A stretch of DNA of 38,381 nucleotides from a virus. Taxonomy: Duplodnaviria > Heunggongvirae > Uroviricota > Caudoviricetes. The notes beneath the pieces are model-generated. The model was not told where the DNA came from, searched no databases, and worked only from the letters and a program-made list of their open reading frames with translations. Shown here in pieces: positions 1 to 24,269 of this stretch. The position numbers and the translations under genes are program-made. Where the stretch lies: IMG/VR virus record IMGVR_UViG_2563366886_000002, positions 1 to 38,381 of that record; one strand, 5' to 3'. The stretch's first letter is position 1, and the number at the start of each line of letters is the position of its first letter.

Positions 1-139
1 GGTAACAGTTACCGGGAATTTTCTGTTCGGTTGCTGCTGCCATACATTCCTGCATTGTTCTGTGAACACTGACTGCAATATCAACTGGCTCTCCGGAAAC
101 AAGAAAAACCGTCAGAATAAGTGCAAATACTGGATTCAT
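1..139 (-). CDS. hypothetical prophage protein, N-terminal part only (runs off the window start); hydrophobic N-terminus
   Basis: Reverse-strand ATG at 139 with AAAGGA about 9 nt upstream; frame open to position 1; translation MNPVFALILTVFLVSGEPVDIAVSVHRTMQECMAAATEQKIPGNCY. Confidence 0.3.
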   Translation of the reverse strand, partial: MNPVFALILTVFLVSGEPVDIAVSVHRTMQECMAAATEQKIPGNCY

Positions 140-347
140 TGTGCACATCCTTTTGGCATCAGACGTAAACGGGCCAGCATTGAAACAATGCATACTTTAT
201 TTAATAACTCCCGTTCGTGTTTTCTTTTGTTAATGGCCTCTTCAGTAAATACAGGATTACTGATAGTGACACCAATTTCAAAACAACCTTCAGGTGATGC
301 TGCCAACTTACTGATTTAGTGTATGATGGTGTTTTTGAGGTGCTCCA

Positions 348-623
348 GTGGCTTCTGTTTCTATCAGCTGTCCCTCCTGTTCAGCTACTGACGGGGTGGT
401 GCGTAACGGCAAAAGCACCGCCGGACATCAGCGCTATCTCTGCTCTCACTGCCGTAAAACATGGCAACTGCAGTTCACTTACACCGCTTCTCAACCCGGT
501 ACGCACCAGAAAATCATTGATATGGCCATGAATGGCGTTGGATGCCGGGCAACCGCCCGCATTATGGGCGTTGGCCTCAACACGATTTTCCGCCATTTAA
601 AAAACTCAGGCCGCAGTCGGTAA
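348..623 (+). CDS. insA: IS1 InsA (transposition inhibitor, N-terminal part of InsAB')
   Basis: 91-aa [46 protein letters not shown]... recognised as IS1 InsA. Confidence 0.95.
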
Positions 624-1045
624 CCTCGCGCATACAGCCGGGCAGTGACGTCATCGTCTGCGCGGAAATGGACGAACAGTGGGGATACGTCGGGGCTAAA
701 TCGCGCCAGCGCTGGCTGTTTTACGCGTATGACAGGCTCCGGAAGACGGTTGTTGCGCACGTATTCGGTGAACGCACTATGGCGACGCTGGGGCGTCTTA
801 TGAGCCTGCTGTCACCCTTTGACGTGGTGATATGGATGACGGATGGCTGGCCGCTGTATGAATCCCGCCTGAAGGGAAAGCTGCACGTAATCAGCAAGCG
901 ATATACGCAGCGAATTGAGCGGCATAACCTGAATCTGAGGCAGCACCTGGCACGGCTGGGACGGAAGTCGCTGTCGTTCTCAAAATCGGTGGAGCTGCAT
1001 GACAAAGTCATCGGGCATTATCTGAACATAAAACACTATCAATAA
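542..1045 (+). CDS. insB: IS1 InsB frame (expressed as InsAB' transposase by -1 frameshift)
   Basis: 167-codon ORF overlapping the insA 3' end in the -1 frame; sequence recognised as IS1 InsB. Confidence 0.9.
596..605 (+). promoter_or_regulatory. IS1 programmed -1 ribosomal frameshift motif (A6C)
   Basis: TTTAAAAAAC at the insA/insB overlap, the known IS1 frameshift window. Confidence 0.7.
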
Positions 1046-1061
1046 GTTGGAGTCATTACCG

Positions 1062-1172
1062 CTCTTGCGTCAGGAGGAGCGGGAAAGGCGAAAAAATATA
1101 GAAAAGCTAATTCAGATTGAGCGTAACGCGAAAGCGCGGATACGCAGGGCGACAAAATCCAGAACTGAATAA
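1062..1172 (+). pseudogene. 3' remnant of a gene truncated by IS1 (C-terminal 36 codons only)
   Basis: Frame opens directly at the IS1 right end with no start codon; reads LLRQEEREREKNIEKLIQIERNAKARIRRATKSRTE then stop. Confidence 0.3.
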
Positions 1173-1871: not shown

Positions 1872-2100
1872 AACGCGAAAATCCACCAGCATCCGGAAAC
1901 CTGATTACAGATTCCCAGATAAGGCAATGAGCTACCTGGCGCAGAACGGGCTGATAAGTATGGGGAATGTTTTACGATGAATATTTAGACTAAAGAGTTT
2001 GTAACGCTATGTAAGTGATTTTTTCTGGTTTAGATATTTATATGTCCGGCCAAATTGAGGTGTGTTTAAATGTAATTGCACATTGATTGTAGGAGGAATA

Positions 2101-2280
2101 ATGAAAAACGCATTGCAGTTTTTGTTTGTTGCGTTCTGGTTGTTCGTATCATGTATGCCCATCATCTTCACAGCAAGGTATATAGAAAAAGTTGATGTTT
2201 TGATATTAATATTTGGATATATAAATGCCCTTTTTTTAGGGGTGTTCATGGCGGTCATGTGCATTGAATACTGGCGGTAA
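2101..2280 (+). CDS. small hydrophobic membrane protein (59 aa)
   Basis: AGGAGG RBS 6 nt upstream of ATG; MKNALQFLFVAFWLFVSCMPIIFTARYIEKVDVLILIFGYINALFLGVFMAVMCIEYWR predicts two transmembrane helices. Confidence 0.45.
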   Translation: MKNALQFLFVAFWLFVSCMPIIFTARYIEKVDVLILIFGYINALFLGVFMAVMCIEYWR

Positions 2281-2389
2281 ATACAGCGAACGCCATTGGT
2301 TTAGTTGGATATTTACTGTGCCGGACAAAAACGGTTTGCGGGGAAATCTTAGTTAAGTAGAATTACTGCGGGTGCTTGAGGCTATCTGT

Positions 2390-2538
2390 CTCAGGCATGA
2401 ACACCAAAAGGCAGATAGAGAAAAGCCCCAGTTAACATTACGCGTCCTGCAAGACGCTTAACATTAATCTGAGGCCATATCTATGCGACACATAGAGATT
2501 AGCCTCTTACGGACCGAAAGGTCAAGGAGAAGCAGGCT
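2390..2538 (+). promoter_or_regulatory. hok mRNA leader region (expected location of mok-like leader ORF and antisense Sok-like RNA)
   Basis: Structured leader upstream of hok; a short ORF (ATGCGACACATAGAG...) terminates in TGA overlapping the hok ATG; assignment by analogy to hok/sok loci. Confidence 0.35.
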
Positions 2539-2694
2539 ATGAAGCAGCAAAAGGCGATGTTAATCGCCCTGATCGTCATCTGTTTAACCGTCATAGTGAC
2601 GGCACTGGTAACGAGGAAAGACCTCTGCGAGGTACGAATCCGAACCGGCCAGACGGAGGTCGCTGTCTTCACAGCTTACGAACCTGAGGAGTAA
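2539..2694 (+). CDS. hokD: Hok/Gef family type I toxin (51 aa)
   Basis: MKQQKAMLIALIVICLTVIVTALVTRKDLCEVRIRTGQTEVAVFTAYEPEE, recognised as HokD/RelF-type Hok peptide. Confidence 0.85.
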   Translation: MKQQKAMLIALIVICLTVIVTALVTRKDLCEVRIRTGQTEVAVFTAYEPEE

Positions 2695-2762
2695 GAGACC
2701 TGGCGGGGGAGAAATCCCTCGCCACCTCTGATGTGTCAGGCATCCTCAACGCACCCGCACTT

Positions 2763-2790
2763 AACCCGCTTCGGCGGGTTTTGTTTTTTC
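2763..2790 (+). terminator. rho-independent terminator after hok
   Basis: CCCGC-TTCG-GCGGG hairpin followed by a T run. Confidence 0.7.
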
Positions 2791-2861
2791 CTGGCATTCT
2801 GGTTTACAATTCGCACGTCAGCCTGAACACCTGACACCTGCTGCGCCAGCAGAGAAAACAG

Positions 2862-3134
2862 ATGGCGCACAAAACCAAATTTCACAATTCTGATACCGAC
2901 CTTGCCATCCGGCATGAGCGGCGTTCACACGCATTTAAAACCGACTGGTACCAACACCCACCATGTACTGAAGAACAGGCCGAATGGCTGATTCATTCTT
3001 ACCGCAGGCGCGGGTTCGAGGTTAAGAAAGCTCTCAGTCTCGACTATCGGCACTGGATAATCTCTGTCAGGCTGCCTTATTCCGAACGCCCACCACGTCC
3101 GTCCCGCACTTTCCAGCAACGGATCTGGAGGTAA
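2862..3134 (+). CDS. hypothetical prophage protein (90 aa) immediately upstream of the DUF968 gene
   Basis: ORF MAHKTKFHNSDTDLAIRHERRSHAFKTDWYQHPPCTEEQAEWLIHSYRRRGFEVKKAL...; position matches the rem gene of the K-12 Qin prophage (order recalled as hokD-rem-ydfU, not verified). Confidence 0.45.
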   Translation: MAHKTKFHNSDTDLAIRHERRSHAFKTDWYQHPPCTEEQAEWLIHSYRRRGFEVKKALSLDYRHWIISVRLPYSERPPRPSRTFQQRIWR

Positions 3135-3135
3135 C

Positions 3136-4194
3136 GTGCGGGTATTACTTAGACCTGTTCTGGTGCCTGAGCTTGGGCTGGTGGTCCTTAAGCCGGGCCG
3201 TGAATCCATACAGATATTTCATAATCCTCGAGTGCTGGTGGAGCCGGAACCGAAAAGCATGTGCGGCCTGCCATCCGGAGTCGTCCCTGCCGTTCGCCAG
3301 CCGCTGGCGGAGGATAAATCATTACTGCCATTTTTCAGCAATGAGCGTGTGATTCGTGCTGCTGGCGGCGCTGGTGCACTGTCTGACTGGCTGTTGCGCC
3401 ATATTAAATCCTGCCAGTGGCCACACGGTGATTATCACCACAGTGAAACCGTCATTCACCGTTATGGTACCGGCGCAATGGTGTTGTGCTGGCACTGCGA
3501 CAACCAGTTGCGTGACCAGACCTCAGAATCACTTGAGCAACTTGCTCACCAAAACTTGTCAGCATGGATGATTGACGTCATCCGTCACGCAATCAGCGGT
3601 ACGCAGGAGAGGGAGTTATCGCTGGCCGAATTATCCTGGTGGGCGGTCTGCAATCAGGTGGCTGATGCGCTTCCGGAGTCTGTATTGTGTCGTTCACTGG
3701 GATTACCGGTGGAAAAAATCCGCTCCGTATACCGTGAGAGTGACATCGTACCGGGAGAACAGACTGCCACCAGCATACTGAAGCAGCGCACAAAAAATAT
3801 TGCGCTGCCACTTCACGTCCACCAGCAACAGCCCCCACTCCAGGAAAAGACGTTAGTAAGCATCGCCGTTGATCCGGAGTCTCCGGCTCAGTATCTCCAG
3901 CGCCAGAAACCACAACGGGAAGAGATGCCTGTATACACGCGCTGGGTAAAAACGCAGAAATGCATGACGTGCGGTAATCAGGCAGATGATCCGCATCACA
4001 TCATTGGTCATGGCCTGGGAGGTATGGGAACAAAGGCTGATGATTTGTTTGTTATTCCGCTGTGCCGTAAATGTCATAACGAACTGCACGCCGGGGTAAA
4101 AGATTTTGAAGAAAAACACGGCAGCCAGCTGTTGTTGCTGATTCGTTTTTTAATGCACGCGAGAAATTCGGGTGTCCTGAAGTGGAAAGCATGA
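3136..4194 (+). CDS. DUF968 family prophage protein (YdfU-like), Cys/His-rich C-terminus
   Basis: 352-aa ORF with GTG start; C-terminal CMTCGNQADDPHHIIGHGLGGMGTKADDLFVIPLCRKCHNELH motif; lies between hok and rusA/Q as in Qin-type prophages. Confidence 0.65.
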   Translation: MRVLLRPVLVPELGLVVLKPGRESIQIFHNPRVLVEPEPKSMCGLPSGVVPAVRQPLAEDKSLLPFFSNERVIRAAGGAGALSDWLLRHIKSCQWPHGDYHHSETVIHRYGTGAMVLCWHCDNQLRDQTSESLEQLAHQNLSAWMIDVIRHAISGTQERELSLAELSWWAVCNQVADALPESVLCRSLGLPVEKIRSVYRESDIVPGEQTATSILKQRTKNIALPLHVHQQQPPLQEKTLVSIAVDPESPAQYLQRQKPQREEMPVYTRWVKTQKCMTCGNQADDPHHIIGHGLGGMGTKADDLFVIPLCRKCHNELHAGVKDFEEKHGSQLLLLIRFLMHARNSGVLKWKA

Positions 4195-5536: not shown

Positions 5537-5612
5537 GGCCCTTTAGCTCAGTGGTGAGAGCGAGCGACTCATAATCGCCAGGTCGCTGGTTCAAATCCAG
5601 CAAGGGCCACCA
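5537..5612 (+). tRNA. tRNA with CAU anticodon (Ile2-lysidine type, ileX/ileZ-like; Met not excluded)
   Basis: Cloverleaf folded by eye: acceptor GGCCCTT/AAGGGCC, D arm GCTC..GAGC, anticodon loop CTCATAA, T arm GCTGG-TTCAAAT-CCAGC, encoded CCA; closely resembles E. coli ileX. Confidence 0.85.
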
Positions 5613-5712: not shown

Positions 5713-5786
5713 GCGTTGTTAGCTCAGCCGGACAGAGCAATTGCCTTCTAAGCAATCGGTCACTGGTTCGAATCCAGTACAGCGCG
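5713..5786 (+). tRNA. tRNA-Arg (anticodon UCU)
   Basis: Acceptor GCGTTGT/ACAGCGC (one GU pair), D arm GCTC..GAGC, anticodon stem ATTGC/GCAAT with loop CTTCTAA, T arm ACTGG-TTCGAAT-CCAGT; CCA not encoded. Confidence 0.8.
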
Positions 5787-6253: not shown

Positions 6254-6644
6254 ATACATATCTGGATTATCACTTGTTACGGTAAAAAGTGATTGCTTAC
6301 TGTTTTTGTGAATGGCATTGCAGCAGCCGGATAATGTCAGTGCTGGCTGACGGTGTGCTGGTGGCGGGTGTGGTGGTTATTGCTTTCCCGTTGCTGAAAA
6401 AGAAAACGCCAGACTGTTAGCCGGGTATCAGTTAGCGGGAGAAATTTTTAAATACTTCACAATTCAGGCGGTTGACTGTTGTCTGGTTTGCGGGGAGTTT
6501 GTTAAAAGAAACTGGCATGGTGAATCCCCCTGTGCGGAGGGGCAATCAGCGAGTAGGTATATGGGATAATCGCGGATTCAGGTGCTGGTACTGAATTCAC
6601 CGGGAGGCACCCGGCACCATGCAATGGCACATAGCGCCACTCTC

Positions 6645-6680
6645 CAGCCCCTCTCCGGAGGGGCTGTTTATATTGATTTT
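6645..6680 (+). terminator. rho-independent terminator (plus-strand oriented)
   Basis: CAGCCCCTC-TCCG-GAGGGGCTG 9-bp stem followed by TTTATATTGATTTT. Confidence 0.65.
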
Positions 6681-11249: not shown

Positions 11250-12277
11250 TGGCAAAAGTGGCTGACGGGATCCGCTACGCCGAACGTGTTGTTGCAGGAG
11301 AAATTGTTGCTGGCGAATTTGTCCGTCTGGCCTGCCAGCGTTTTCTTGATGATCTGAAGTACGGCGAAGAGCGGGGGATTTATTTCAGTGAACCTCGTGC
11401 ACAGCACATCCTTAATTTCTACAAATTTGTACCCCATGTGAAAGGGGCGCTGGCAGGTCAGCCCATTGAGTTGATGGACTGGCATGTGTTTATCCTCATT
11501 AATATTTTTGGTTTTGTCATTCCGCTGGTGAATGAAGAAACCGGGGAAGTTGTCATGCGCAGCGATGGCAGTGGACGCCCGGTGATGGTGCGCCGGTTCC
11601 GGACAGCATACAACGAAGTTGCCCGTAAAAACGCAAAATCAACCCTGTCATCGGGTATCGGTCTGTATATGACGGGGGCAGATGGTGAAGGCGGGGCTGA
11701 GGTGTATTCAGCCGCAACCACGCGTGACCAGGCCAGAATTGTGTTTGAAGACGCCAAAAATATGGTCAGAAAAGCCCGGTCGACACTCGGGCGGTTGTTT
11801 GATTTCAACAAGCTGGCGATTTACCAGGAGCAGAGCGCATCAAAATTTGAACCGCTTTCCTCGGATGCAAACAACCTGGACGGTCTGAACATCCACTGCG
11901 CCATTATTGATGAGCTGCATGCTCATAAAACCCGTGACGTGTGGGACGTTCTGGAAACGGCAACCGGTGCCCGTCTGCAGTCTCTGTTATTTGGCATCAC
12001 CACGGCTGGCTTTAACAAGGAAGGGATTTGCTACGAGCAGCGCGATTACGCCATTAAGGTATTGCGAGGCTATAACAGCGACGTGGAGGGCGCGGTAAAA
12101 GACGACTCCTACTTTGCGATCATTTACACGCTCGATGAGGGAGATGATCCGTTTGATGAAACGGTCTGGCAGAAAGCGAATCCTGGCCTGGGCATCTGTA
12201 AACGCTGGGATGATCTGCGTCGTCTGGCGAAAAAAGCGAAGGAGCAGGTCTCTGCGCGGGTGAATTTTTTTACCAAG
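11249..12277 (+). CDS. terminase large subunit, N-terminal (ATPase) portion only; interrupted by the inserted element
   Basis: MAKVADGIRYAERVV...KANPGLGICKRWDDLRRLAKKAKEQVSARVNFFTKK aligns by eye with residues 1 to about 330 of the intact terL at 25338..26999; frame then reads through the att junction into int. Confidence 0.8.
12263..12277. repeat. attL core (left junction of inserted element)
   Basis: AATTTTTTTACCAAG; 12/15 identical to AATATTCTTACCAAA at 27508..27522, with a 7-bp identical core TTACCAA; both copies in the terL reading frame. Confidence 0.6.
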
Positions 12278-12406
12278 AAAGTAACATCACGCCGTAACAA
12301 CAGTGCGACCTGTCCTGATTTTTTTAGTAACCAAATGAAAGAAAAAGATTTTTTTCTTGTTCGTCGTTTTTGTTTTTTCTGGAAGGTTCTGGCTGTTTTC
12401 ATCATT

Positions 12407-12429
12407 TGTGTATTGCACTGTGTATTGCA
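12407..12429 (+). repeat. tandem direct repeats (candidate integrase arm-type sites / int promoter), left arm
   Basis: TGTGTATTGCA c TGTGTATTGCA 20 bp upstream of the int ATG; related GTGTATTGC pair at 27419..27439. Confidence 0.5.
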
Positions 12430-12448
12430 AAAACGGGTTATAAATCAC

Positions 12449-13671
12449 ATGGCGCTAAACAAACTGAGCGATAAAAAACTTCGTTCCCTGCTTGGACGCA
12501 GGAGTGAGAGGCAGGAAACCATCGCTGATGGTAACGGGCTTTCGGTACGGGTCAGTAAATACGGATGTGTTAGTTTTGTTTTCTTTTACAGACTGGCGGG
12601 AAGGGAAACCGCGCCCATCTGGCTGACACTTGGAAAATATCCTGATCTGAGTCTCAAATCAGCGAGAGAGATGCGCGATCAGTGTCGAACTTGGCTTGCG
12701 GAGGGCAGAGATCCACGGATTCAGATAAAAATTGAACGGGAAGCCACCTTGCAACCTGTTACCGTTCGTGAGGCACTTGAATACTGGCTTGATAATTATG
12801 CAATGGATAAGCGTAGGGGAGCAGAACATATCAGGCAGTGCTTTGGTAAACATATTTATCCGGTGATTGGTCATGTACCACTTAGTGATTGCTCTATATC
12901 TATGTGGATTAAGTGTTTTGACAAAATAAAAAAAGTAGCACCTGTACAGGCCGGAGCTTTGTTGCGTATATCAAAACAGGCGCTTAAATTTTGTAGGGTA
13001 AGAAAATACGCGATTAGTCATGAAATTGATGATCTTGAGGTCTGTGATGTGGGAAAAAAGTCTGCGCGAAGAAGCAGGGTTTTAACAGATGATGAAATCA
13101 GAGATTTATGGCGAAGTATTAATACTGATTATGACAATCACGAATTATCATATGAAAACCGAATTATTTTACGTTTCCTGGTAGTTTTTGGTTGTCGACT
13201 GTCAGAAGTATTACTGTCGTCCTGGGTAGAGTGGGATTTTGATAAGAAATTATGGCGCGTTCCCGCTGATCATAGCAAAAATGGCAGGGAAATAATCAGA
13301 CCGATTCCTGATGGCATGTTTAACTGGTTAGTTACGTTAAAAAAATAACAGGTAACAAAGAAAATGTGATTGGGTTTGATATGCGTCAGTGTACGGCAAG
13401 CGTAACTATCGGTAAGACATGGAAAAGGATGAAACACTCGGAGAAATGGACGGCGCATGATATGCGAAGAGTGTTTGCCACAAAACTAAGTGATCATGGT
13501 TTTGAACATAATGTGGTTGAACAGTTGCTTGGGCACACATTAGGCGGTGTTGCCGGGGTTTATAACAGAAGCCAGTATATGGACAGAAAAAAAGAAGCTA
13601 TGAACTGGTGGTACGACTATCTGAATAAGCAAATTAGTGGTGACAGTAATGATTCAAATAGTTACGCGTGA
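12449..13671 (+). pseudogene. int: tyrosine integrase (P4-like), reading frame split by a frameshift at an A7 run
   Basis: N part MALNKLSDKKLRSLLGRRSERQETIADGNGLSVRV... ends TAA at 13346..13348; catalytic C part (..WTAHDMRRVFATKLSD..LLGH..VYNRSQY) continues in the -1 frame (13366..13671); A7 run at 13339..13345. Confidence 0.6.
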
Positions 13672-13870
13672 AGAACTTGAAAATGATGAAACAATCGACA
13701 GGATGATTAAGGAAGATGAATGTGCATGGTTAACCGCTCTTGGCAGGAGACACAGATCGTTACTTGAAAAGGAAGGAAAATTTCCACGAAAAATATGTAT
13801 TGGCCCACAAACAAAAGTCTGGCGCTTATCTGAGGTGCTGGAATGGGTAAAAGGTGAATGGAAACCCTGA
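13637..13870 (+). CDS. AlpA-family DNA-binding protein (excisionase/regulator-like)
   Basis: ...ECAWLTALGRRHRSLLEKEGKFPRKICIGPQTKVWRLSEVLEWVKG resembles AlpA helix-turn-helix; start uncertain (several Met). Confidence 0.55.
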   Translation: MVTVMIQIVTREELENDETIDRMIKEDECAWLTALGRRHRSLLEKEGKFPRKICIGPQTKVWRLSEVLEWVKGEWKP

Positions 13871-13895
13871 GCTAAATTAAATGAGATATAATCAA

Positions 13896-13918
13896 CCCGT
13901 CTTTTGGCGGGTTTTTTT
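13896..13918 (+). terminator. rho-independent terminator
   Basis: CCCGTC-TTTT-GGCGGG hairpin plus T7. Confidence 0.6.
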
Positions 13919-13933
13919 ATAGGTGATATTTTT

Positions 13934-14212
13934 ATGCAAAAATTTATTTATCCTACACCCGAAGAACGCATTCAGATTCTGAAAGATCATGGCGAACCGT
14001 ATGATCGCCGTATACGCGAACATGAGTGTGCCAATCGTACCGGGCTTTCAAGAAGCAGACGTTGGGTACTTGAACAGGAGGGAGCATTTCCTGCTCGTGC
14101 TCATTTAGGGAAAGTGTCTGTTTCCTGGTTGCTCTCTGATGTGCTCTGGTGGGTTATGCATCCGCCAGGAGTAAAGGAAGTAAACAGCCCATACAAAAAC
14201 GCCAATAAGTAA
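13934..14212 (+). CDS. second AlpA-like DNA-binding protein
   Basis: AGGTGA RBS; MQKFIYPTPEERIQILKDHGEPYDRRIREHECANRTGLSRSRRWVLEQEGAFPARAHLGKVSVSWLLSDVLWWV. Confidence 0.55.
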   Translation: MQKFIYPTPEERIQILKDHGEPYDRRIREHECANRTGLSRSRRWVLEQEGAFPARAHLGKVSVSWLLSDVLWWVMHPPGVKEVNSPYKNANK

Positions 14213-14233
14213 TTACCGACAACCCCGCACCAC

Positions 14234-14261
14234 GCAATGCGGGGTTTTTTGTATGTGAGGT
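14234..14261 (+). terminator. rho-independent terminator
   Basis: CCCCGCA-CCACGCAA-TGCGGGG plus TTTTTT. Confidence 0.7.
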
Positions 14262-14269
14262 AAAAAGCA

Positions 14270-14848
14270 ATGAATAAAAATATTGCCGTGACGGGCAAGG
14301 GTGACGCACGTCATGTGAAAAAATTCTGTGATATTCGTGATCTGGTCGTTCTGCGCTTTGATGGCGTGGATGTTCGTGTGGTGTATCTAAACGGCGATCC
14401 GTGGTTTGTTGCAAAGGATGTTTGTGCTGCGCTGGAACTGACCAATTCGCGTACGGCGTTGCAGATGCTTGATGATGACGAAAAGGGAGTAAATTTAACT
14501 TACACCCCCGGAGGAAATCAGAATATGAGCATTATCTCCGAATCAGGTTTCTACAAACTAATAGCCCGCAGCCGCAAAGCAACGACGCCTGGCACATTTG
14601 CTCATCGTTTCAGTAACTGGGTATTCAGAAATGTGATACCGGGTATCAGAAAAACGGGGGCTTATGGTATCCCGTGGGGCGCATTACAGGATTTTTCCCG
14701 CCGCAAAGAGCAATACCAGATAAGTGCCAGTGAGAAGGGGAGGGAGCTACAGGCATGTAAGCGCAAAAAGCGTGAGCTGGAGGAAGAAGAAAAAAGGCTG
14801 ATACGTGAATACCAGCCTGAGTTTTACTTTGGTGAGCGTATTCAGTAA
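14270..14848 (+). CDS. Bro-N domain protein (antirepressor-like)
   Basis: N-terminal VRVVYLNGDPWFVAKDVCAALELTNSRTALQMLDDDEKG typical of Bro-N/AntA N-terminal domains; charged coiled-coil C-terminus. Confidence 0.6.
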   Translation: MNKNIAVTGKGDARHVKKFCDIRDLVVLRFDGVDVRVVYLNGDPWFVAKDVCAALELTNSRTALQMLDDDEKGVNLTYTPGGNQNMSIISESGFYKLIARSRKATTPGTFAHRFSNWVFRNVIPGIRKTGAYGIPWGALQDFSRRKEQYQISASEKGRELQACKRKKRELEEEEKRLIREYQPEFYFGERIQ

Positions 14849-15126
14849 CCACACGCGGTGTTGATTATACGGTACATCGTGTTGACCGGGAAGCTACCCA
14901 CCAGCAAGGCAAAATCTTCTGCTAAAAAATGACATATGACCAGTCGTCCGGAAAGCATGAAATTTTACAAAAATGGAAAATGAAGATTTTTATTGTGCTG
15001 GTGGGTAAAAACAAAAAGCGCCCCGTTGCCGGAGCGCCCTTGCGAACAATTAACCTACTGCGCAAAAAATGAATATAAGCTGTGGAATTATATCAGACAG
15101 GTGACGAAGCGCCACTATTGCCGGAT

Positions 15127-15162
15127 AACAGGCAAAACAAAGGCGACCGCAAAAGGGTCGCC
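15127..15162 (-). terminator. rho-independent terminator for the leftward regulator operon
   Basis: GGCGACC-GCAAAAG-GGTCGCC perfect 7-bp stem; T-rich on the reverse strand (TTGTTTTGCCTGTT). Confidence 0.6.
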
Positions 15163-15228
15163 AGTGGGAACAAGGGAAAACAAAAGCATCACCAACAATG
15201 CCACATTTGCGGCTGGTGGGCAATGTGA

Positions 15229-15417
15229 TCAGTCAGATTTGGTTCGTTCCAAGGTTTGCAACGAGAGCTTTTTCCTGCGCTCTTTAAGGAATTTCTCAAG
15301 AGCAAACGAACAAGGTGCGAATCTTTCTGATTCATGCTCTATCTTTCTGCGCCGTCTTTTCCGTGTCGGTGATAATGTTTTGGTCAATTCTTTATCGGTC
15401 ATTGTGTTGTCCTGCAT
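15229..15417 (-). CDS. small basic hypothetical protein (62 aa)
   Basis: Reverse-strand ORF MQDNTMTDKELTKTLSPTRKRRRRKIEHESERFAPCSF...; downstream of the repressor-like gene, upstream of the reverse terminator. Confidence 0.35.
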   Translation of the reverse strand: MQDNTMTDKELTKTLSPTRKRRRRKIEHESERFAPCSFALEKFLKERRKKLSLQTLERTKSD

Positions 15418-15459
15418 AGCAATGCGCCGTAGTTACTCACACCACGGCGCTGATAGTGA

Positions 15460-15657
15460 TTATTCTGATTCTTTGGCCTTCCGGCGCTGTTCATATTTTA
15501 ATTTGCGTCCACAGGCATCTAAGACCCATGCGGAAAAATTAGCACTAGGATTAGTTAATTTTTCTTGTTCAACGCTGGCATCAATCCCATCTATAAGCTC
15601 ATGTGGGAATCGAATATTTTTCTTTGCTGATTTGTTGTTTGTGTTACCGCTAGACAT
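15460..15657 (-). CDS. small putative DNA-binding protein; candidate element repressor
   Basis: 65-aa reverse-strand ORF MSSGNTNNKSAKKNIRFPHELIDGIDASVEQEKLTNPSANFSAWVLDACGRKLKYEQRRKAKESE; divergent from, and adjacent to, the palindromic operator-promoter. Confidence 0.4.
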   Translation of the reverse strand: MSSGNTNNKSAKKNIRFPHELIDGIDASVEQEKLTNPSANFSAWVLDACGRKLKYEQRRKAKESE

Positions 15658-15725
15658 TGATGCACCTCACTTAAATGGACTTTATGGGCGCACACAATAC
15701 AGCAAAAAAAATGAGATGTTAAGTA

Positions 15726-15764
15726 TTGACATGTGCGCACACATGATTTTAATCTGTGCGCACA
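15726..15764 (+). promoter_or_regulatory. rightward early promoter of the element overlapped by two palindromic operators
   Basis: TTGACA (15726..15731) and TTTAAT -10 candidates; two perfect 10-bp palindromes TGTGCGCACA at 15732..15741 and 15755..15764, 23 bp centre to centre; degenerate third copy GCGCACACA at 15689..15696. Confidence 0.6.
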
Positions 15765-15862
15765 GTTTGAGTTTTGTCACTCAAATTAAGCAACGCCCCG
15801 CAGTGCTCGCAACACATGCAGGGCGTCTAACCACCAACGATAGCAAGAGTATCGAGGTAGCT

Positions 15863-16066
15863 ATGAGAAATCATACCACACACCCGCAAGGGCGGGACTC
15901 GCACAACCTGAATAAATATATCTGGCGTTTTATCGCCCTGAGCACGGCACAACCGCGCGTGATTACCATTGAGGCCACCAGCGAACAGGAAGCACGCCAG
16001 CAATCCCCGGCTGGCTGCGTGATGGTATTCGCCGCCCGTATTCGTCAGGGGGTACACCATGATTAA
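15863..16066 (+). CDS. hypothetical protein (67 aa), first gene of the rightward operon
   Basis: MRNHTTHPQGRDSHNLNKYIWRFIALSTAQPRVITIEATSEQEARQQSPAGCVMVFAARIRQGVHHD; stop overlaps next start. Confidence 0.45.
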   Translation: MRNHTTHPQGRDSHNLNKYIWRFIALSTAQPRVITIEATSEQEARQQSPAGCVMVFAARIRQGVHHD

Positions 16067-16271
16067 CCTGTCACTTACCGACCTTAACCGCATCCAGTTT
16101 CGTGAGAAATTCACCGGGCAGTTGCTAGTCAATGTGGATAAAGGTCGCGTGGTGAGTAATTACCACCTGCCAGATGAAGCAATTGTCGCAACAAGGGAAT
16201 CATTACAGGAACTCGCAGAGCGTGTCGGAATGATTAACGCGAATATTCAGGGGGGGGTGAGCCATGCATGA
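16059..16271 (+). CDS. hypothetical protein (70 aa)
   Basis: Start-coupled ORF MINLSLTDLNRIQFREKFTGQLLVNVDKGRVVSNYHLPDEAIVATRESLQELAERVG. Confidence 0.45.
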   Translation: MINLSLTDLNRIQFREKFTGQLLVNVDKGRVVSNYHLPDEAIVATRESLQELAERVGMINANIQGGVSHA

Positions 16272-16497
16272 TATTTACAATGACACAGTAGATCATGCAT
16301 ACAGCGCACTTGCTTACAGTGAAAACATGCTTGAAATATTGCGCTTATGGCTTGAAACGCTTGGCGATAATGAAAGAGATAAACGCAACAGCAATATTGC
16401 AACAGCATTAATAACGCTTCTTGAGCCTGTAATAAATGAACTGCAAGAAATAGACATCTTGCACGACAGATATAAAGAGCAACACACCGGGAAATAA
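16264..16497 (+). CDS. hypothetical protein (77 aa)
   Basis: Start-coupled ORF MHDIYNDTVDHAYSALAYSENMLEILRLWLETLGDNERDKRNSNIATALITLLEPVINELQE. Confidence 0.45.
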   Translation: MHDIYNDTVDHAYSALAYSENMLEILRLWLETLGDNERDKRNSNIATALITLLEPVINELQEIDILHDRYKEQHTGK

Positions 16498-16502
16498 AAA
16501 CC

Positions 16503-16802
16503 ATGAAACAGAAAATTTCTGGCTTTACTGCCAGCGGCCCCGCTCGGCCTGAAATCCGCCCCGGCGATATTTTCCGGGATAACTACGGCGGCACGGTAAC
16601 GATTAAAAGCGTGGCGGGACGGTGCGTTACTTACCGCCGTGATGGGTACGGCTATGACTGCGTGATGCCTGTTTATCAGTTCCGGCGTGATTTTTCTCTG
16701 GTACAGAACGCAACACGCGGTAAGCCCACCAGCAGGGAAAAAGCACGGGAAAATATTAAGAAAATAAAAAGCATGCTCAGCGCATCCAGAGGTAAAAAAT
16801 GA
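16503..16802 (+). CDS. hypothetical protein (99 aa)
   Basis: MKQKISGFTASGPARPEIRPGDIFRDNYGGTVTIKSVAGRCVTYRRDGYGYDCVMPVYQFRRDF...; stop overlaps the rep start (ATGA). Confidence 0.45.
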   Translation: MKQKISGFTASGPARPEIRPGDIFRDNYGGTVTIKSVAGRCVTYRRDGYGYDCVMPVYQFRRDFSLVQNATRGKPTSREKARENIKKIKSMLSASRGKK

Positions 16803-18919
16803 AACTGGCACCGAACGTAAAACTGTTACCGAAAGATAAAGGCGAGGATGCAGTGATTTTTGCGGGGGATGACGCATACAGCCACGCAGAGCATTACATG
16901 CAGGGCGGAGAAGCCAGAAAGCGCGGCGACAAAATACCACCTGTTTATCTCGGGCGGCGTGACCTGGGTAATCTGGAAAACCTGCGTATTGTGGATGATG
17001 GACGGTTACGCGCCATGGTCAGACGTGCCGGAAAGCTGGATGACAGACAGGCGTTACAGATTGAAACCCTGCTGGCAGTGGCTGGTGTTAAGGAAGCCAG
17101 TTTTTGTGACGAGAACGGTGAACTACTGGAGGACTGGACACCGCAGCTTGCCCGGCTGAAAGACGAATACGAGCGCGGGGAAAGTCTGGTGTTGCCCTTA
17201 AAGAAAAAAATCACAGAAAGCCAGGGCGATGATGAATTAAAGCCCCGCGTTGAAAGTCGCGCCGATGGTGTTTTCTGGGTAACGCCCAAAGTTGACAAGC
17301 AGTCAGGCGAAATTATCCGGCCTGAGACGTGGTTATGTTCCCCGCTTGAACTACTGGGAACGGGGACAATCGGCAAAGAGCATTACCGCGTGATGCGCTG
17401 GAAGAAACCCGCAAACCATGAAGTCATCACAATGGCGGTTCCGTGCGGGGGCATTGGCGACCGTGACGGCTGGCGGTTGCTGAAAGACCACGGCCTTAAC
17501 GTAACAACTAACGGCAAATACAGGGCTATCCTGGCTGACTGGATGCAGTTAAGCGGAAACCATGAGGAATGGCAGTTAAGCACAACAACGGGCTGGCATT
17601 TTGGTGCGTACATCATGCCGGACGGTTCAGTCATTGGTGAGTCTGAAAAACCGATCCTGTTTACCGGAAAAACGGCTGCCGTTAATGGCTATTCTGTGGC
17701 AGGAACGGCGGAGGGCTGGCGCGATACCGTTGCGCGGCTGGCTGGTGGTAATCCGTCCATGATGCTGGGTGTGGCGGTATCGTTATCCGCACCATTAATC
17801 GGGCTGGTGGGTGCTGACGGCTTCGGGGTACATCTTTTCGAACAGTCATCGGCAGGGAAAACCACCACACAGAACATCGCATCCAGTTTATGGGGAGAGC
17901 CGGACGCGCAACGGCTGACCTGGTACGGTACAGCGTTAGGCATCGCCAACGAGGCAGAGGCGCACAATGACGGGCTATTACCCCTGGATGAAATAGGTCA
18001 GGCCGGAAACGCGCGGGAAGTGTCCACGTCGGCTTATACGCTGTTTAACGGTTCGGGGAAATTACAGGGGGCGAAGGACGGCGGCAACAGGGAGATCAAA
18101 CACTGGCGCACGGTGGCAATCAGCACCGGAGAAATGGACGTTGAGACATTCCTCAAAACGGAGGGGATAAAAGTCAAGGCGGGGCAGCTTGTCCGCCTGC
18201 TTAACGTGCCAATGGAAAAAGCCACGCAGTTTCACGAATACAGCACCGGAAAGGCACACGCAGACGCGTTAAAGGATGCCTGGACAGAAAATCACGGGGC
18301 GGCGGGGCGTGAATGGGTTAAATGGCTGGCAGACCACCAGCAGGAGGCAAAGGATACGGTAAGGGCATGCCGTGAACGGTGGCGCAACCTGATACCGGAG
18401 AGTTACGGCGAACAGGTTCACCGTGTGGGGGAACGATTCGCCATGCTGGAGTCGGCGCTGGTGCTTTCCGTCCATATTACTGGTTGGGATGTTCAGGCGT
18501 GCCGCGATGCCATTCAGCATAATTTTAATGCCTGGGTGAAGGAGTTCGGCACGGGTAACAGGGAGTTTAAACAGATGGTTGAACAGGCAGAGGCTTTTTT
18601 AGCGTCGTTCGGATTCAGCAGATACCTTCCGTGGCCCAACACCGACGAGCGTGATTTACCGATTAAAGAGCTTGCCGGATACAGAAAGGGGAGTATCAGA
18701 AACGAAGATGACGAGTTCCGTTTTTACACGTTCCCGCATGTATTTGAGGGTGAGATAGCACAGGGATTTAATCCGTCTCACTTTGCCCGCGCGTTGAGTG
18801 CTGCCGGAATGCTGGAAGCGGGTAACGATCGCCGTTACAAGAAAAAGGCGCTCGGCAAAATTGGGGGGAAGCAGCATGTTTTTTACGTGCTGATGTTCCA
18901 GCCTGAGGCAGAAGATTAA
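16799..18919 (+). CDS. replication protein, DUF927-type P-loop NTPase (primase/helicase-like) of the element
   Basis: 706-aa ORF with Walker A GxxxxGKT (SSAGKTTTQN); followed immediately by an iteron cluster; architecture typical of satellite/PICI replication genes. Confidence 0.6.
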   Translation: MKLAPNVKLLPKDKGEDAVIFAGDDAYSHAEHYMQGGEARKRGDKIPPVYLGRRDLGNLENLRIVDDGRLRAMVRRAGKLDDRQALQIETLLAVAGVKEASFCDENGELLEDWTPQLARLKDEYERGESLVLPLKKKITESQGDDELKPRVESRADGVFWVTPKVDKQSGEIIRPETWLCSPLELLGTGTIGKEHYRVMRWKKPANHEVITMAVPCGGIGDRDGWRLLKDHGLNVTTNGKYRAILADWMQLSGNHEEWQLSTTTGWHFGAYIMPDGSVIGESEKPILFTGKTAAVNGYSVAGTAEGWRDTVARLAGGNPSMMLGVAVSLSAPLIGLVGADGFGVHLFEQSSAGKTTTQNIASSLWGEPDAQRLTWYGTALGIANEAEAHNDGLLPLDEIGQAGNAREVSTSAYTLFNGSGKLQGAKDGGNREIKHWRTVAISTGEMDVETFLKTEGIKVKAGQLVRLLNVPMEKATQFHEYSTGKAHADALKDAWTENHGAAGREWVKWLADHQQEAKDTVRACRERWRNLIPESYGEQVHRVGERFAMLESALVLSVHITGWDVQACRDAIQHNFNAWVKEFGTGNREFKQMVEQAEAFLASFGFSRYLPWPNTDERDLPIKELAGYRKGSIRNEDDEFRFYTFPHVFEGEIAQGFNPSHFARALSAAGMLEAGNDRRYKKKALGKIGGKQHVFYVLMFQPEAED

Positions 18920-18941
18920 CCCCCTGTGTGAGGTGAAAAGT

Positions 18942-19066
18942 TGCGGGTTATGCGGGTTATCCTGTGTATAAGTGCATTAACTGTATGAATAAAAAGGAAA
19001 TCAGTAACCCGCACGTAACCCGCAAAACGGCAGTTATAACCCGCAAAAGTGCGATTATAACCCGCA
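18942..19066. repeat. iteron cluster (candidate origin of replication of the element)
   Basis: 9-mer TGCGGGTTA twice in tandem (18942..18959), AT-rich spacer, then inverted copies TAACCCGCA at 19005, 19016, 19037, 19058. Confidence 0.65.
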
Positions 19067-19129
19067 GAATTTCACCGTAAGGGTGTAAACAAGCGTAACA
19101 ATCAACGTTAAAACCGGAGAACAGACAGC

Positions 19130-19555
19130 ATGACAGCACAGATAGCGGCTTACGGGCGGCTGGTGGCTGACCCGCAGTTAAAGACCACCAGCAAGGGGAC
19201 ACAAATGGCTATGGCGAGTATGGCGGTTCCCCTGCCGTGCAGCCAGGCAGATGACGGAACGGCGACGATGTGGTTATCCGTCCTGGCGTTTGGCAGACAG
19301 GCCGATGCACTGGCAAAACACCAGAAAGGCGAACTGGTGAGTGTGGCGGGTAACATGCAGGTAAGCCAGTGGACAGGCCAGAACGGCGAAATGCGGCAGG
19401 GCTGGCAGGTCATCGCAGACAGCGTAATCAGTGCGCGAACGGCGCGACCGGGCGGCAAAAAAGGCCAGCAGGGCCAGGCTACTGACGCACTGAACAGGGC
19501 AAAACAACAGACAGGCCAGCACGATGATCCGTACGGGGACGGGATACCGTTTTAA
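19130..19555 (+). CDS. ssb: single-stranded DNA-binding protein
   Basis: OB-fold-like N-terminus (IAAYGRLVADPQLKTTSKGTQMAMASMAV), Gly/Gln-rich linker, acidic tail ending DDPYGDGIPF (SSB-type DIPF tail); GGAGAA RBS. Confidence 0.7.
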   Translation: MTAQIAAYGRLVADPQLKTTSKGTQMAMASMAVPLPCSQADDGTATMWLSVLAFGRQADALAKHQKGELVSVAGNMQVSQWTGQNGEMRQGWQVIADSVISARTARPGGKKGQQGQATDALNRAKQQTGQHDDPYGDGIPF

Positions 19556-19570
19556 GCAGTGAGGTACAGC

Positions 19571-19867
19571 ATGATTAAAGACAGCAAAGCGGAAGAACTG
19601 GAGGCTAAAGGGCTGTACCGGAGAGCGGCGGCACGTTGGGCTGATGTTATGTGGCTGGTGAGCACTGACAAGGAGCGCGAACAGGTGGCAAAGCGTCGCG
19701 CGGAATGTATCCGTAAGGCAGCGCGCCAACCAGTCATACCGGATAATTTCGGAATACTGAAAGAGGCCATAAACCGCACACATACCGGGATGGGCTTACA
19801 GAAACCTGGCGGTGAGATGTTCAGGAACTACCCGAAAAAAAAGGGGATAATTGATAACGGTTGTTAA
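19571..19867 (+). CDS. PerC-family transcriptional regulator-like protein
   Basis: MIKDSKAEELEAKGLYRRAAARWADVMWLVSTDKEREQVAKRRAECIRKA resembles PerC/Pch proteins as recalled; GAGG RBS. Confidence 0.45.
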   Translation: MIKDSKAEELEAKGLYRRAAARWADVMWLVSTDKEREQVAKRRAECIRKAARQPVIPDNFGILKEAINRTHTGMGLQKPGGEMFRNYPKKKGIIDNGC

Positions 19868-19899
19868 CTGTTTCTGGTATCGTGGTAGCAGGAGGAAAC

Positions 19900-20148
19900 A
19901 TGCCTGTGACATTTGAAGAAGTTCAGCAACATAAAAAGTTTCATGGTTTTGATGATCTGGAAACCACGACAGCAAAAAAATATCGCCGTCTGCTTTCTTC
20001 CGATGCGTTGTTTGTTGTGGATCATCATGATTTTCTGCGCAGCTCACTGACCGGGGAAATTTTCGCAACCAACCGTGAGCAGGTGGAAGCGATGATCGAA
20101 TACCTGTGGAAACTAAGAAGCAGAATGCGGGATCCCGTGAAACGGTAA
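19900..20148 (+). CDS. hypothetical protein (82 aa)
   Basis: AGGAGG RBS; MPVTFEEVQQHKKFHGFDDLETTTAKKYRRLLSSDALFVVDHHDFLRSSLTGEIFATNREQVEAMIEYLWKLRSRMRDPVKR. Confidence 0.45.
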   Translation: MPVTFEEVQQHKKFHGFDDLETTTAKKYRRLLSSDALFVVDHHDFLRSSLTGEIFATNREQVEAMIEYLWKLRSRMRDPVKR

Positions 20149-20157
20149 AATGATAAA

Positions 20158-20185
20158 GGCCTGGTAAAATCCAGGCCATTTTTTT
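20158..20185. terminator. terminator hairpin between convergent genes
   Basis: GGCCTGG-TAAAAT-CCAGGCC followed by ATTTTTTT on the plus strand. Confidence 0.65.
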
Positions 20186-20690
20186 ACAGTAAGCCTATTA
20201 AGGCACTTGCGCCAGCCCCAACAATGCTGGCAACGGTACTGTTTTCCAGTAACTGCTTTAATACTGATTTGGCTTGTACATCCCCCGATTTAGAGACTTT
20301 TTCAACCAGTTCAGTGATGCTGATGTTTACCAGCATATGGTTATGCTCACCTATCTGCACTTGATTACCACTAATTGAACCAATGTTAAATGTATTACTT
20401 TTAGGTGGCGTCATATGTTCATTTCCCGTGATATTTTCAATATAGAGCGTCAACATATTTGGATGGTTGGTTCCCTGTCTGAGGGTTCCATTGGGAAGCA
20501 ACTTCATATCTATAATTTTTAGATTTATCTCGTTTTTACCGACACACTGGATAATGTGTTGACCAATAGTTACTTCCGGTTCATTTGTATATGGAATTAA
20601 TACCTTGTTTTCTTTTGCGTTTCTTTTACCTTTAAATGATTCGCCATTAATTATGAAAGTATCAGGGTATACCATTGCGCTTAAATTCAT
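20184..20690 (-). CDS. AT-rich accessory protein of unknown function (168 aa) with hydrophobic Gly/Ala-rich C-terminal tail
   Basis: Reverse-strand ORF MNLSAMVYPDTFIINGESFKGKRNAKENKVLIPYTNEPEV...NSTVASIVGAGASALIGLL; AAAGGA RBS; markedly lower GC than the flanking modules; own upstream region and terminator. Confidence 0.5.
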   Translation of the reverse strand: MNLSAMVYPDTFIINGESFKGKRNAKENKVLIPYTNEPEVTIGQHIIQCVGKNEINLKIIDMKLLPNGTLRQGTNHPNMLTLYIENITGNEHMTPPKSNTFNIGSISGNQVQIGEHNHMLVNISITELVEKVSKSGDVQAKSVLKQLLENSTVASIVGAGASALIGLL

Positions 20691-20976
20691 GATGCGTCCT
20701 TTGTTGTAGTCAGAGGTAGCAATAATAGGCCATGGTTTACTTCTTTTGTAAATTATTTGTTCGTGTTTTTTCGTGGTTGTTCGGCCTTACTGACAGGTGT
20801 TTACATACTGATTTTTATGTATATGTTGGCGTGTGGCACTCAGACGTGAGCCGCCACAATGCCGCCTGACCCCCTGCGCGATGCCGGGTTGATCTGCGAG
20901 ATGCCGAGAGTGTCGGGCGGCGCTCCCTCCGTGTTGGTTTCACGTCCTGAATCTTAACCAATACGAGAAAACCTTC

Positions 20977-22146
20977 ATGAAGAAATTAATCGAACTCCGC
21001 CAGCAAAAAACCGCCCTGAAAAACCAGATGCGATCCCTGCTGGAAAAAGCCGACAGTGAAAACCGCAGCCTGAACGATGACGAGGGCAAACAGTTTGATG
21101 AACTGCGTGCAAAAGCCGATTCCCTCGACACAGAAATTTCCCGCCTCGAGTCTGTGGCTGATGAAGAACGCAGCAAGCCAGGAACGGGCATCCAGAAATT
21201 ATCATCTGATGAATTGCGTAACTACATCGTAACCGGAGATGTGCGATCACTGACCACCAGCACTGACAGCGGCAGGGATGGCGGATATACCGTAATTCCT
21301 GAGCTTGATCGCGAAGTCATGCGCCAGCTACAGGATGACAGTGTTATGCGCGTGATCGCGACCGTGAAGACCGCAAAATCAAATGAGTTTCAGAAACTGG
21401 TTTCCACTGGCGGCGCAACTGTAGGACGAGGCACAGAAGGCAGCGCACGTAGTGAAACCAACACCCCGAAAATTGAACGTGTAACCATCAAGCTGAATCC
21501 GATCTACGCCTACCCGAAAACCACGCAGGAAATCCTGGATTTTTCAGAGGTGGATATTCTGGGCTGGTTATCCTCCGAAATTGCCGACACGTTCGCCAGC
21601 ACCGAAGAGGATGATTTTGTTAATGGCGACGGTAACGGCAAGCCGAAAGGCTTCATGGCTTACACCCGTGCGGCGACCAGTGACAAAACCCGCGCTTTTG
21701 GCACCATTGAAAAAGTGGTAGCGGCAAGTGGAACCGCCATTACAGCGGACGAACTGATCGACATTCTCTACAAGCTGAAAGCGAAATACCGCAAAAATGC
21801 CGTCTGGGTGATGAACTCGGGCACGGCAGGGACACTACAGAAGCTGAAAAATGAGAATGGCGATTATATCTGGCGCGACAGCCTTAAAGAAGGTGCGCCG
21901 GATATGTTGCTTGGTCGTCCTGTTTTCTGCCTGGAGTCCATGCCGGACATCGGCGCAGGAAAAGCACCGCTAGCGGTTGGCGATTTCAGTCGTGGTTATT
22001 TCATCGTTGATCATGTAACAGGGATTCGCACCCGACCGGACAACATTACTGAACCCGGATTCTACAAGGTCCACACGGATAAATATCTGGGCGGTGGTGT
22101 GGTGGATTCAAACGCCATCAAAATTCTGGAAATGAAAGCTGGCTAG
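20977..22146 (+). CDS. major capsid protein, HK97 fold (element copy)
   Basis: 389-aa ORF with N-terminal coiled-coil delta-domain-like region then capsid-like body; paralogous by eye to the helper capsid at 30232..31449. Confidence 0.75.
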   Translation: MKKLIELRQQKTALKNQMRSLLEKADSENRSLNDDEGKQFDELRAKADSLDTEISRLESVADEERSKPGTGIQKLSSDELRNYIVTGDVRSLTTSTDSGRDGGYTVIPELDREVMRQLQDDSVMRVIATVKTAKSNEFQKLVSTGGATVGRGTEGSARSETNTPKIERVTIKLNPIYAYPKTTQEILDFSEVDILGWLSSEIADTFASTEEDDFVNGDGNGKPKGFMAYTRAATSDKTRAFGTIEKVVAASGTAITADELIDILYKLKAKYRKNAVWVMNSGTAGTLQKLKNENGDYIWRDSLKEGAPDMLLGRPVFCLESMPDIGAGKAPLAVGDFSRGYFIVDHVTGIRTRPDNITEPGFYKVHTDKYLGGGVVDSNAIKILEMKAG

Positions 22147-22200
22147 TCATGAGTAAGGAGGAGGCTGCGGCCTCCTTTTTCAGCTTTATGGAGTACACCG

Positions 22201-22761
22201 ATGAAAAACACCGATTTTGAAATCCGCACATCTGAACTGACCGCCAGCAATAAAAAGCTGGTGGGGTATGCCGTTCGCTGGAACAGCCTTTCAGAAATTA
22301 TCTGGGACGAATTCCGCGAACAGTTCACGCCGGGGGCTTTTGCTGACTATCTGGCGGCGGGTAATGATGTGCGCTGCCTGTATGAGCATGACTATACCCA
22401 ACTGCTGGGGCGCACCAAATCCGGCACTCTGGTACTGACTGGGGACAACACCGGGCTACGTTTTGAACTGACACCGCCTGATACCCAGCTTGGAAAAGAT
22501 GTGCTCACGCTGGTGTCGCGTGGCGACATTACAGGAATGAGCTTTGGCTTTCGCGCATTATGCGAAGAATGGAATATCGCGCAAAAACCGTATTTGCGTA
22601 CCGTAACCGCCGCTGAACTCCGAGAAATCACAATAACGTCGATGCCTGCTTATCCAGAATCTGGCGTGGAGATTGCCCACCGTTCGTTGTTTGCACAGCA
22701 CCCTGAATTACGCCCGGCAGGAAATAATCGTCATCGCTGGGCTGAACTGGCGGGGTTGTGA
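22201..22761 (+). CDS. prohead protease, HK97 family (element copy)
   Basis: 186-aa ORF between capsid and portal; resembles the helper protease at 29618..30217. Confidence 0.7.
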   Translation: MKNTDFEIRTSELTASNKKLVGYAVRWNSLSEIIWDEFREQFTPGAFADYLAAGNDVRCLYEHDYTQLLGRTKSGTLVLTGDNTGLRFELTPPDTQLGKDVLTLVSRGDITGMSFGFRALCEEWNIAQKPYLRTVTAAELREITITSMPAYPESGVEIAHRSLFAQHPELRPAGNNRHRWAELAGL

Positions 22762-22762
22762 T

Positions 22763-23977: not shown

Positions 23978-24269
23978 AGACAAAATTACACCTGATGAAG
24001 TCAGGGCACATCTTCGCCTTGATGACTTTTCCGGAGAAGGCGAACTTCTGAAAATGTATACCGATGCGGCGCTGGAAGCCTGCCAGAAGCATATCGGGAA
24101 ACGTTTTGAAGACGGGCTGGAATTTACCCCGGCAATACGTGTTGGTTGCCTGATGTACATCGCTTTCCTGTACGAGAACAGGGAAGCGGTTTCACCTGTG
24201 GAACAGTCTGAACTGCCTATGGCTATTTCTGCGCTCTGGTCGGTTTATCGTGATGTGGGGGTGTACTGA
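23970..24269 (+). CDS. head-tail connector protein (gp6-like), element copy
   Basis: MSEDKITPDEVRAHLRLDDFSGEGELLKMYTDAALEACQKHIGKRF...; start overlaps portal stop (ATGAGTGA). Confidence 0.6.
   Translation: MSEDKITPDEVRAHLRLDDFSGEGELLKMYTDAALEACQKHIGKRFEDGLEFTPAIRVGCLMYIAFLYENREAVSPVEQSELPMAISALWSVYRDVGVY

Follow-up and report, generated by a model that had tools for sequence, protein, structure and literature searches.

An intact IS1 lies between two truncated genes of a DicB/Qin-type prophage

The window, by which we mean the whole 38,381-nucleotide stretch of viral DNA analyzed here, has the layout of a DicB/Qin-type prophage and is collinear at 97-100% identity with the annotated prophages L001, L002, L012 and that of E. 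coli 042. The closest relatives lacking the IS1 described below are two prophages at potC, in E. coli 127 (L002) and in strain NRZ96606 (L012). On the minus strand, the leftward early operon is represented by the 5′ part of ydfD (DUF1482, lysis protein YdfD; 1-139), which the window edge truncates and which matches L002 15001-15139, annotated as DUF1482/ydfD, at 100% identity, and by a remnant of dicB (136-292). A complete IS1 follows at 293-1060 on the plus strand and abuts the 3′ remnant of a phrog_1621 gene (1061-1172, plus strand). Rightward from this remnant come a DUF7167 gene, two small genes and the nin/Q region with sok/hokD, DUF968, RusA and an antiterminator, and then tRNAs and the lysis and structural genes.

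By length and terminal repeats, by reading frames joined at an A6C motif and by near identity to reference copies, the element is an IS1 of the IS1B sequence type; reference values for IS1 length and repeats, and the role of the A6C motif, are given in PMC12428005. It is exactly 768 bp long, opening with GGTGATGCTGCC and closing with GAGTCATTACC. The terminal inverted repeats, IRL (293-315, GGTGATGCTGCCAACTTACTGAT) and IRR (1038-1060, GGTAATGACTCCAACTTATTGAT, the end of the element reading ...ATCAATAAGTTGGAGTCATTACC), are imperfect and match at 18 of 23 positions. insA (348-623, plus strand) is intact and encodes 91 amino acids from a GTG start, with the Pfam domains Zn_ribbon_InsA and HTH_Tnp_IS1, and the insB′ frame (542-1045, plus strand) is open throughout. 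The A6C -1 frameshift site TTAAAAAAC (597-605, plus strand) yields the InsAB′ transposase. The reconstructed protein of 232 amino acids matches the Pfam zinc-finger, HTH and DDE families PF03811, PF12759 and PF03400 over their full length (DDE_Tnp_IS1, 1-131 of 131, E 4e-78). Seven other IS1 copies could be aligned with it end to end over 768 bp with no gap: it is identical to the IS1B-annotated chromosomal copies L014 and L015 (0 differences, 100% identity) and differs at 2 positions from the IS1 of phage P1 and at 4-8 from IS1A-type copies. No second IS1 sequence was found in the window, so that 293-1060 is the sole copy there.

IS1 usually duplicates 8 or 9 bp of its target (PMC12428005). 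The 9 bp to the left of the element (284-292, CAACCTTCA) and the 9 bp to its right (1061-1069, GCTCTTGCG) agree at 3 of 9 positions, no more than expected by chance. CAACCTTCA is absent from the right side, and no duplication of 8-10 bp surrounds this IS1 in any register. The direct duplication of 8-9 bp that marks a simple intermolecular insertion is thus lacking, as a sequence-only reading of this DNA had claimed.

That reading had also described the right flank as the last 36 codons of a gene with no start, and this description holds. Positions 1062-1169 encode LLRQEERERRKNIEKLIQIERNAKARIRRATKSRTE in frame, followed by a stop codon (1170-1172), and no start codon is present. The intact gene, at L002 19679-20035, encodes a protein of 118 amino acids of unassigned function with a weak zinc-ribbon signal; its first 82 codons (245 bp) are missing from the window. 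The left flank is a truncated gene as well, which had not been remarked. Intact DicB of L002 has 62 amino acids, begins with MKTLLPNVNTSEGCFEIG and matches Pfam PF05358 (E 6e-39). Compared with this translation, dicB in the window has lost its first 10-11 codons, together with its promoter, and its frame continues from inside IS1, reading ...SPEGCFEIG.

Two chimeric open reading frames span the junctions. One, of 56 codons (136-306, minus strand), runs from a TTG at 306 inside the IS1 terminal repeat into truncated dicB; the other, of 41 codons (1047-1172, plus strand), runs from a TTG at 1047 inside IRR into the truncated phrog_1621 gene. Exact-protein look-ups found neither product on record in the protein collection. 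Both are likely to be annotation traps and not genes.

The two flanks lie 4,631 bp apart in IS1-free relatives

The 292 bp to the left of IS1 and the 500 bp to its right are each 100% identical to both L002 and L012. Each relative shows the breakpoints in the order and orientation of the window, with 4,631 bp between them. In L002 coordinates, the left flank ends at 15292, positions 15293-19923 are missing and the right flank resumes at 19924. The left empty site reads CAACCTTCA followed directly by GACGTATT (15292/15293) and the right one GATGTAAG followed directly by GCTCTTGCG (19923/19924), so that the breakpoints coincide exactly with the two IS1 termini. Because both interrupted genes are intact in L002 and L012, the window represents the derived state. 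It retains a single IS, with the relatives' DNA missing exactly from the IS terminus, which is the structure expected of an adjacent deletion.

From the dicB side onward, the missing segment holds the 5′ end of dicB, the DicF small RNA (an Rfam match of 77 bits in the relatives), ydfC and a small zinc-binding open reading frame. Next are the genes of the immunity switch, an HTH repressor (dicA/cI-like) and a cro-like gene, and a YdaT/CII-like gene. The remainder comprises a replication initiation protein (phrog_3729, E 7e-257), DUF977 and the first 82 codons of the phrog_1621 gene. No DNA of this segment was found elsewhere in the window, and an Rfam search likewise placed no DicF there. The switch, DicF and the replication genes are therefore absent from the window, and all of them lie within the relatives' 4,631 bp.

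The sequence-only reading had proposed that an IS1-associated deletion removed part of the early region, and it had suggested a comparison with related prophages free of the IS1. This comparison supports the proposal, with the flanks matching perfectly and the intervening immunity and replication genes present in the relatives. The absence of such genes from the window start to hok is thus accounted for by the IS1-bounded deletion.

No microhomology was found between the two empty sites, as might have accompanied a deletion independent of IS1. We also considered whether IS1 copies in two different prophages had recombined and so brought together unrelated flanks, with a rearrangement of the chromosome. 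We rejected this possibility, as a single potC lineage, that of L002 and L012, matches the 292 bp on the left and the 500 bp on the right at 100% identity.

A mosaic patch at 2061-3560, which spans hok/sok, the small gene after it and the beginning of DUF968, shares about 100% identity with L001 (an ompW-integrated prophage of strain 2D) and only 90-97% with L002 and L012, otherwise the closest prophages. The patch starts about 1 kb to the right of IS1; it is lambdoid mosaicism of the usual kind and has no connection with the IS1 junction.

IS1 events recur in the 5′ third of dicB

As a local baseline, we examined IS1 in homologous early regions of prophages from other E. coli genomes, seven copies in all. 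Perfect 9-bp duplications flank four of them (L003, L004, L008 and L010), namely CGTTTGGTA, which lies in dicB, GAACCTTTA, AACTTTATC and GGAATCGAG. The remaining three (L005, L007 and L009) have no duplication, and all three adjoin missing or truncated DNA; in L007 the neighbor is an N-terminally truncated exonuclease gene. In these regions it is therefore common for an IS1 to lack a duplication and to stand beside missing DNA.

Three of these copies lie close to the position of the window junction within dicB. In L003 (strain 23CRST022), which serves as a positive control, a simple IS1 insertion lies 19 bp further along the gene with the perfect duplication CGTTTGGTA. In L005 (E. coli 2017.04.03CC), IS1 joins dicB at the nucleotide used in the window, and the deletion extends to the lysis region. 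In L009 (23CRST007), a divergent IS1 bounds a deletion from dicB to flxA. In window-equivalent coordinates the junctions fall at 262 (L009), 292 (window and L005) and 311 (L003).

The Qin prophages L005 and L009 resemble the window in that IS1 abuts the 5′ third of dicB, no duplication is present and the immunity region is deleted. They differ from it in prophage lineage (flank about 94% identical), in IS1 isoform (IS1A-type or divergent) and, for L005, in orientation. Their right-hand endpoints, in the rrrQ region (L005) and at flxA (L009), also differ from that of the window, and the events are independent. For L005, whose Qin lies at rspB, an inverted IS1A-type element with 7 differences and a flank only about 94% identical point to an origin independent of the window event.

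With the window included, the 5′ third of dicB carries four independent IS1 events within a span of 50 bp, and deletions of the immunity region accompany three of them. By our own estimate, which is based on small numbers from the loci inspected, the chance that two of four events would share a nucleotide in the 189-bp dicB under uniform targeting is about 3%. Such clustering may reflect a preference of IS1 for this target, a selective filter or a combination of the two. A single deletion ending in dicB would eliminate the repressor along with both early promoters, DicF and the start of dicB, so that losing immunity would not unleash the division inhibitors. We tentatively suggest, while considering it rather doubtful, that IS1 prefers the 5′ third of dicB as a target, above all the 9-mer CAACCTTCA at codon 11, and that dicB-anchored deletions are a recurrent, selectively permitted route by which DicB-type prophages are grounded in E. 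coli. If confirmed at population scale, the recurrence would give modest insight into IS1 target choice and into which deletions of prophage DNA are viable.

Adjacent deletion from a single IS1 is the favored mechanism

An IS can come to lack a target duplication through decay of the repeats, recombination between IS copies or adjacent deletion, and the last two are the usual causes (PMC11708052). We consider it very probable that the window carries a genuine IS1-associated deletion, whichever of these two mechanisms produced it. Both leave identical end products, and the window sequence alone cannot separate them.

The reading we favor, with roughly even confidence, is an adjacent deletion by intramolecular replicative transposition from one resident IS1. 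In a DicB/Qin-type lambdoid prophage beside potC, IS1 would first have entered at one or other of the junctions seen today. We regard the dicB junction as the likelier first site because IS1 strikes dicB repeatedly. Transposase would then have linked the opposite end of the element to a site on the same molecule 4.6 kb away, and the intervening 4,631 bp would have been lost as a circle. This would leave one IS1 between flanks that had never been neighbors, and therefore no target-site duplication. The predicted precursor junctions are IS1-IRR followed by CAACCTTCAGACGTATT and GATGTAAGGCTCTTGCG followed by IS1-IRL.

To look for the junctions and their precursors, we used 60-mers on 5,426 complete E. 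coli genomes; for GTDB species representatives, JGI metagenome contigs and IMG/VR the queries were 32-33-mers. Neither exact junction in the same orientation had a match in these four collections, nor did a precursor, with IS1 and its duplication at either junction; a precursor may still exist outside these collections. The only near match was L005 (H91), with its inverted IS1 at the same dicB nucleotide. One further match, H5 (L004), seemed to share the right junction and was rejected, as separate BLAST pieces had been joined and its IS1 lies at another position. Matches H6-H9 and H13-H15, which gave the same impression, were rejected as well, no right-junction match being present in any complete E. 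coli genome.

The main rival explanation, already raised by the sequence-only reading, is that two IS1 copies inserted in the same orientation, one in dicB and one in the phrog_1621 gene, and that RecA-type homologous recombination between them excised the 4.6 kb and one IS1. Each insertion would have made its own 9-bp duplication and the surviving hybrid would keep one flank from each, which gives exactly the observed structure. Recombination between IS copies frequently accounts for missing duplications (PMC11708052), natural IS1 insertions recur in this same prophage region and IS1 is present dozens of times in many E. coli genomes, at up to 40 or more places per record. If the source genome were rich in IS1, as for example in Shigella, two nearby insertions would be less improbable. 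Against this, recombination demands two independent same-orientation insertions within 4.6 kb in addition to the recombination itself, and the junction searches found no genome with a single insertion or with both IS1 copies in the collections covered. The window IS1 is uniformly of IS1B type with no isoform mosaic, an observation that is uninformative if both parents were identical. We regard recombination as a real possibility, though a less probable one than adjacent deletion, for which a single insertion suffices. Adjacent deletion is also favored because IS1 transposes primarily replicatively (PMC12428005), because the simple dicB insertion 19 bp away in L003 exemplifies a plausible first step and because two IS1 copies around the immunity region, the intermediate that recombination requires, were seen in none of the seven homologous loci inspected. 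Our preference for it is modest.

The other explanations carry much less weight. IS1 might have inserted first inside the missing segment and generated two successive adjacent deletions, one from either end, that produced both present junctions, or a one-step insertion with deletion might have left no duplication. Adjacent deletions in long-term evolution lines often begin small and extend stepwise, and one-step IS movement of this kind has been proposed (PMC11708052). Such histories are less parsimonious, since they call for three events or for a mechanism that is still to be established in the case of IS1, and a first insertion in the repressor or early-promoter region could release the toxic dicBF operon from repression (PMC10448788); we consider them improbable. 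Marginally less credible still is an assembly artefact, in which two real direct IS1 copies were collapsed and the 4.6 kb between them dropped. Collapse of a 768-bp repeat would give exactly the observed pattern, and neither junction was seen in any other public genome searched. However, the missing segment is nowhere else in the window, equivalent single-IS1 deletions are present in finished genomes (L005 and L009) and this IS1 lies inside a contiguous 38-kb stretch; short-read assemblers normally break at IS1, which suggests a long-read or finished assembly. An ordinary insertion whose 9-bp duplication was later erased by point mutations or sequencing errors can be dismissed almost entirely. 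Beyond general possibility nothing speaks for it, and a decayed or mis-sequenced duplication is excluded because the flanks, matching at 3 of 9 positions, are error-free copies (over 292 bp and 500 bp) of sequences that lie 4,631 bp apart in the relatives.

The favored adjacent deletion has long-studied counterparts. The classical IS1-promoted adjacent deletions are reportedly those that Reif and Saedler described in 1975 for the gal region of E. coli K-12. The window shares the features of adjacent deletions by IS1, with one IS kept, a deletion starting at the exact IS terminus, no duplication and an intact, replicative IS1 (general mechanism in PMC11708052). Unlike the gal deletions, the window event is known as an end product only, in a natural prophage. 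It also resembles the IS150 and IS1 recombination deletions of the Lenski long-term lines (PMC11708052), where one IS stands between unrelated half-duplications; it is unlike recombination deletions in that the required two-copy intermediate is seen in no relative. An IS1-bounded prophage deletion is in any case long-known, textbook-type IS-driven decay, here with a standard IS1 copy.

The deletion leaves a grounded, defective prophage

The prophage is grounded and defective. The repressor, early promoters, replication genes and DicF are gone, dicB is a pseudogene and the terminase gene terL is separately disrupted. With the 4,631 bp, the prophage has lost the repressor, the cro-like and CII-like genes, both divergent early promoters, the replication initiator and DicF, and dicB has lost its promoter and start. 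Having lost its switch and its replication initiator, the prophage should therefore be neither inducible nor able to replicate.

In Qin, a single promoter has been identified for ydfABC-dicF-dicB-ydfDE, namely dicBp, which lies upstream of ydfA. DicA keeps it repressed, and growth is inhibited when it is induced (PMC10448788). This regulation fits a deletion that takes away repressor and promoter together. The loss of the repressor was probably tolerated because the event also deprived the toxic leftward operon of its promoter. With the promoters lost along with the repressor, neither the division inhibitors nor the rightward operon should be switched on. A consensus scan for an outward or fusion promoter at the right end of IS1 that could drive the nin/Q region returned, on the plus strand from IS1 to hok, only IS1's own weak promoter-like site (300-327), a weak negative result.

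The cryptic Qin (Kim) prophage of E. coli K-12 has the same gene set, with ydfD, dicB, DicF, ydfABC, a dicA/dicC-like switch, hokD, DUF968, RusA and Q (PMC10448788; PMC2669165). As in Qin and the defective prophages of O157 Sakai, a lambdoid prophage has been disabled by IS insertions and deletions (PMC10448788; PMC2669165), and the general picture of IS-damaged lambdoid prophages in PMC2669165 is consistent with the window. Qin of K-12 keeps dicA, dicC, dicF and dicB and has lost other parts. Unlike it, the window prophage keeps its late region and has lost the switch, DicF and the 5′ end of dicB, and its second lesion is a nested element in terL. The locus offers a clean natural example of an IS removing the control region of a prophage without killing the host. 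Its significance is mainly a matter of annotation: the prophage should be called defective, and the two junction open reading frames should not be annotated as genes.

Other features of the prophage lineage

Positions 10268-38381 of the window are 99.3% identical to E. coli 042. By collinearity, a nested element of about 15 kb (approximately 12280-27510) lies inside terL, with the 5′ part of the gene at approximately 11250-12278 and the 3′ part at approximately 27508-28251. It encodes an integrase, two HTH regulators, BRO-N, an Icd-like protein, a DUF927 primase-like protein, SSB and PerC, and it has its own genes for a major capsid protein, prohead protease, portal, head-tail connector, HNH, TerS and TerL. 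No tail genes were found within approximately 12280-27510. We take the element to resemble a capsid-forming, PICI-type phage satellite. The same element is present in E. coli 042 and NRZ96606, both of which lack the IS1 event, and it therefore predates that event.

In L001, L002 and L012, the three relatives whose annotation covers it, the gene that follows a 58-codon open reading frame, at 1614-1871, is recorded as frameshifted and interrupted by a stop; it is an older pseudogene common to the lineage. Rfam matches at the gathering threshold place the sok antitoxin RNA at 2370-2541, overlapping hokD, two tRNAs downstream of the antiterminator at 5537-5609 and 5713-5786, and the small RNA STnc100 at 6486-6675.

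The relatives carry other IS elements, at L012 17570-18682, L012 23055-24283 and L002 28747-29975, whose sites are empty in the window. These are IS421, after tRNA-Ile, and IS2, after iss. Different IS elements are thus eroding the potC prophage lineage, each strain being affected independently.
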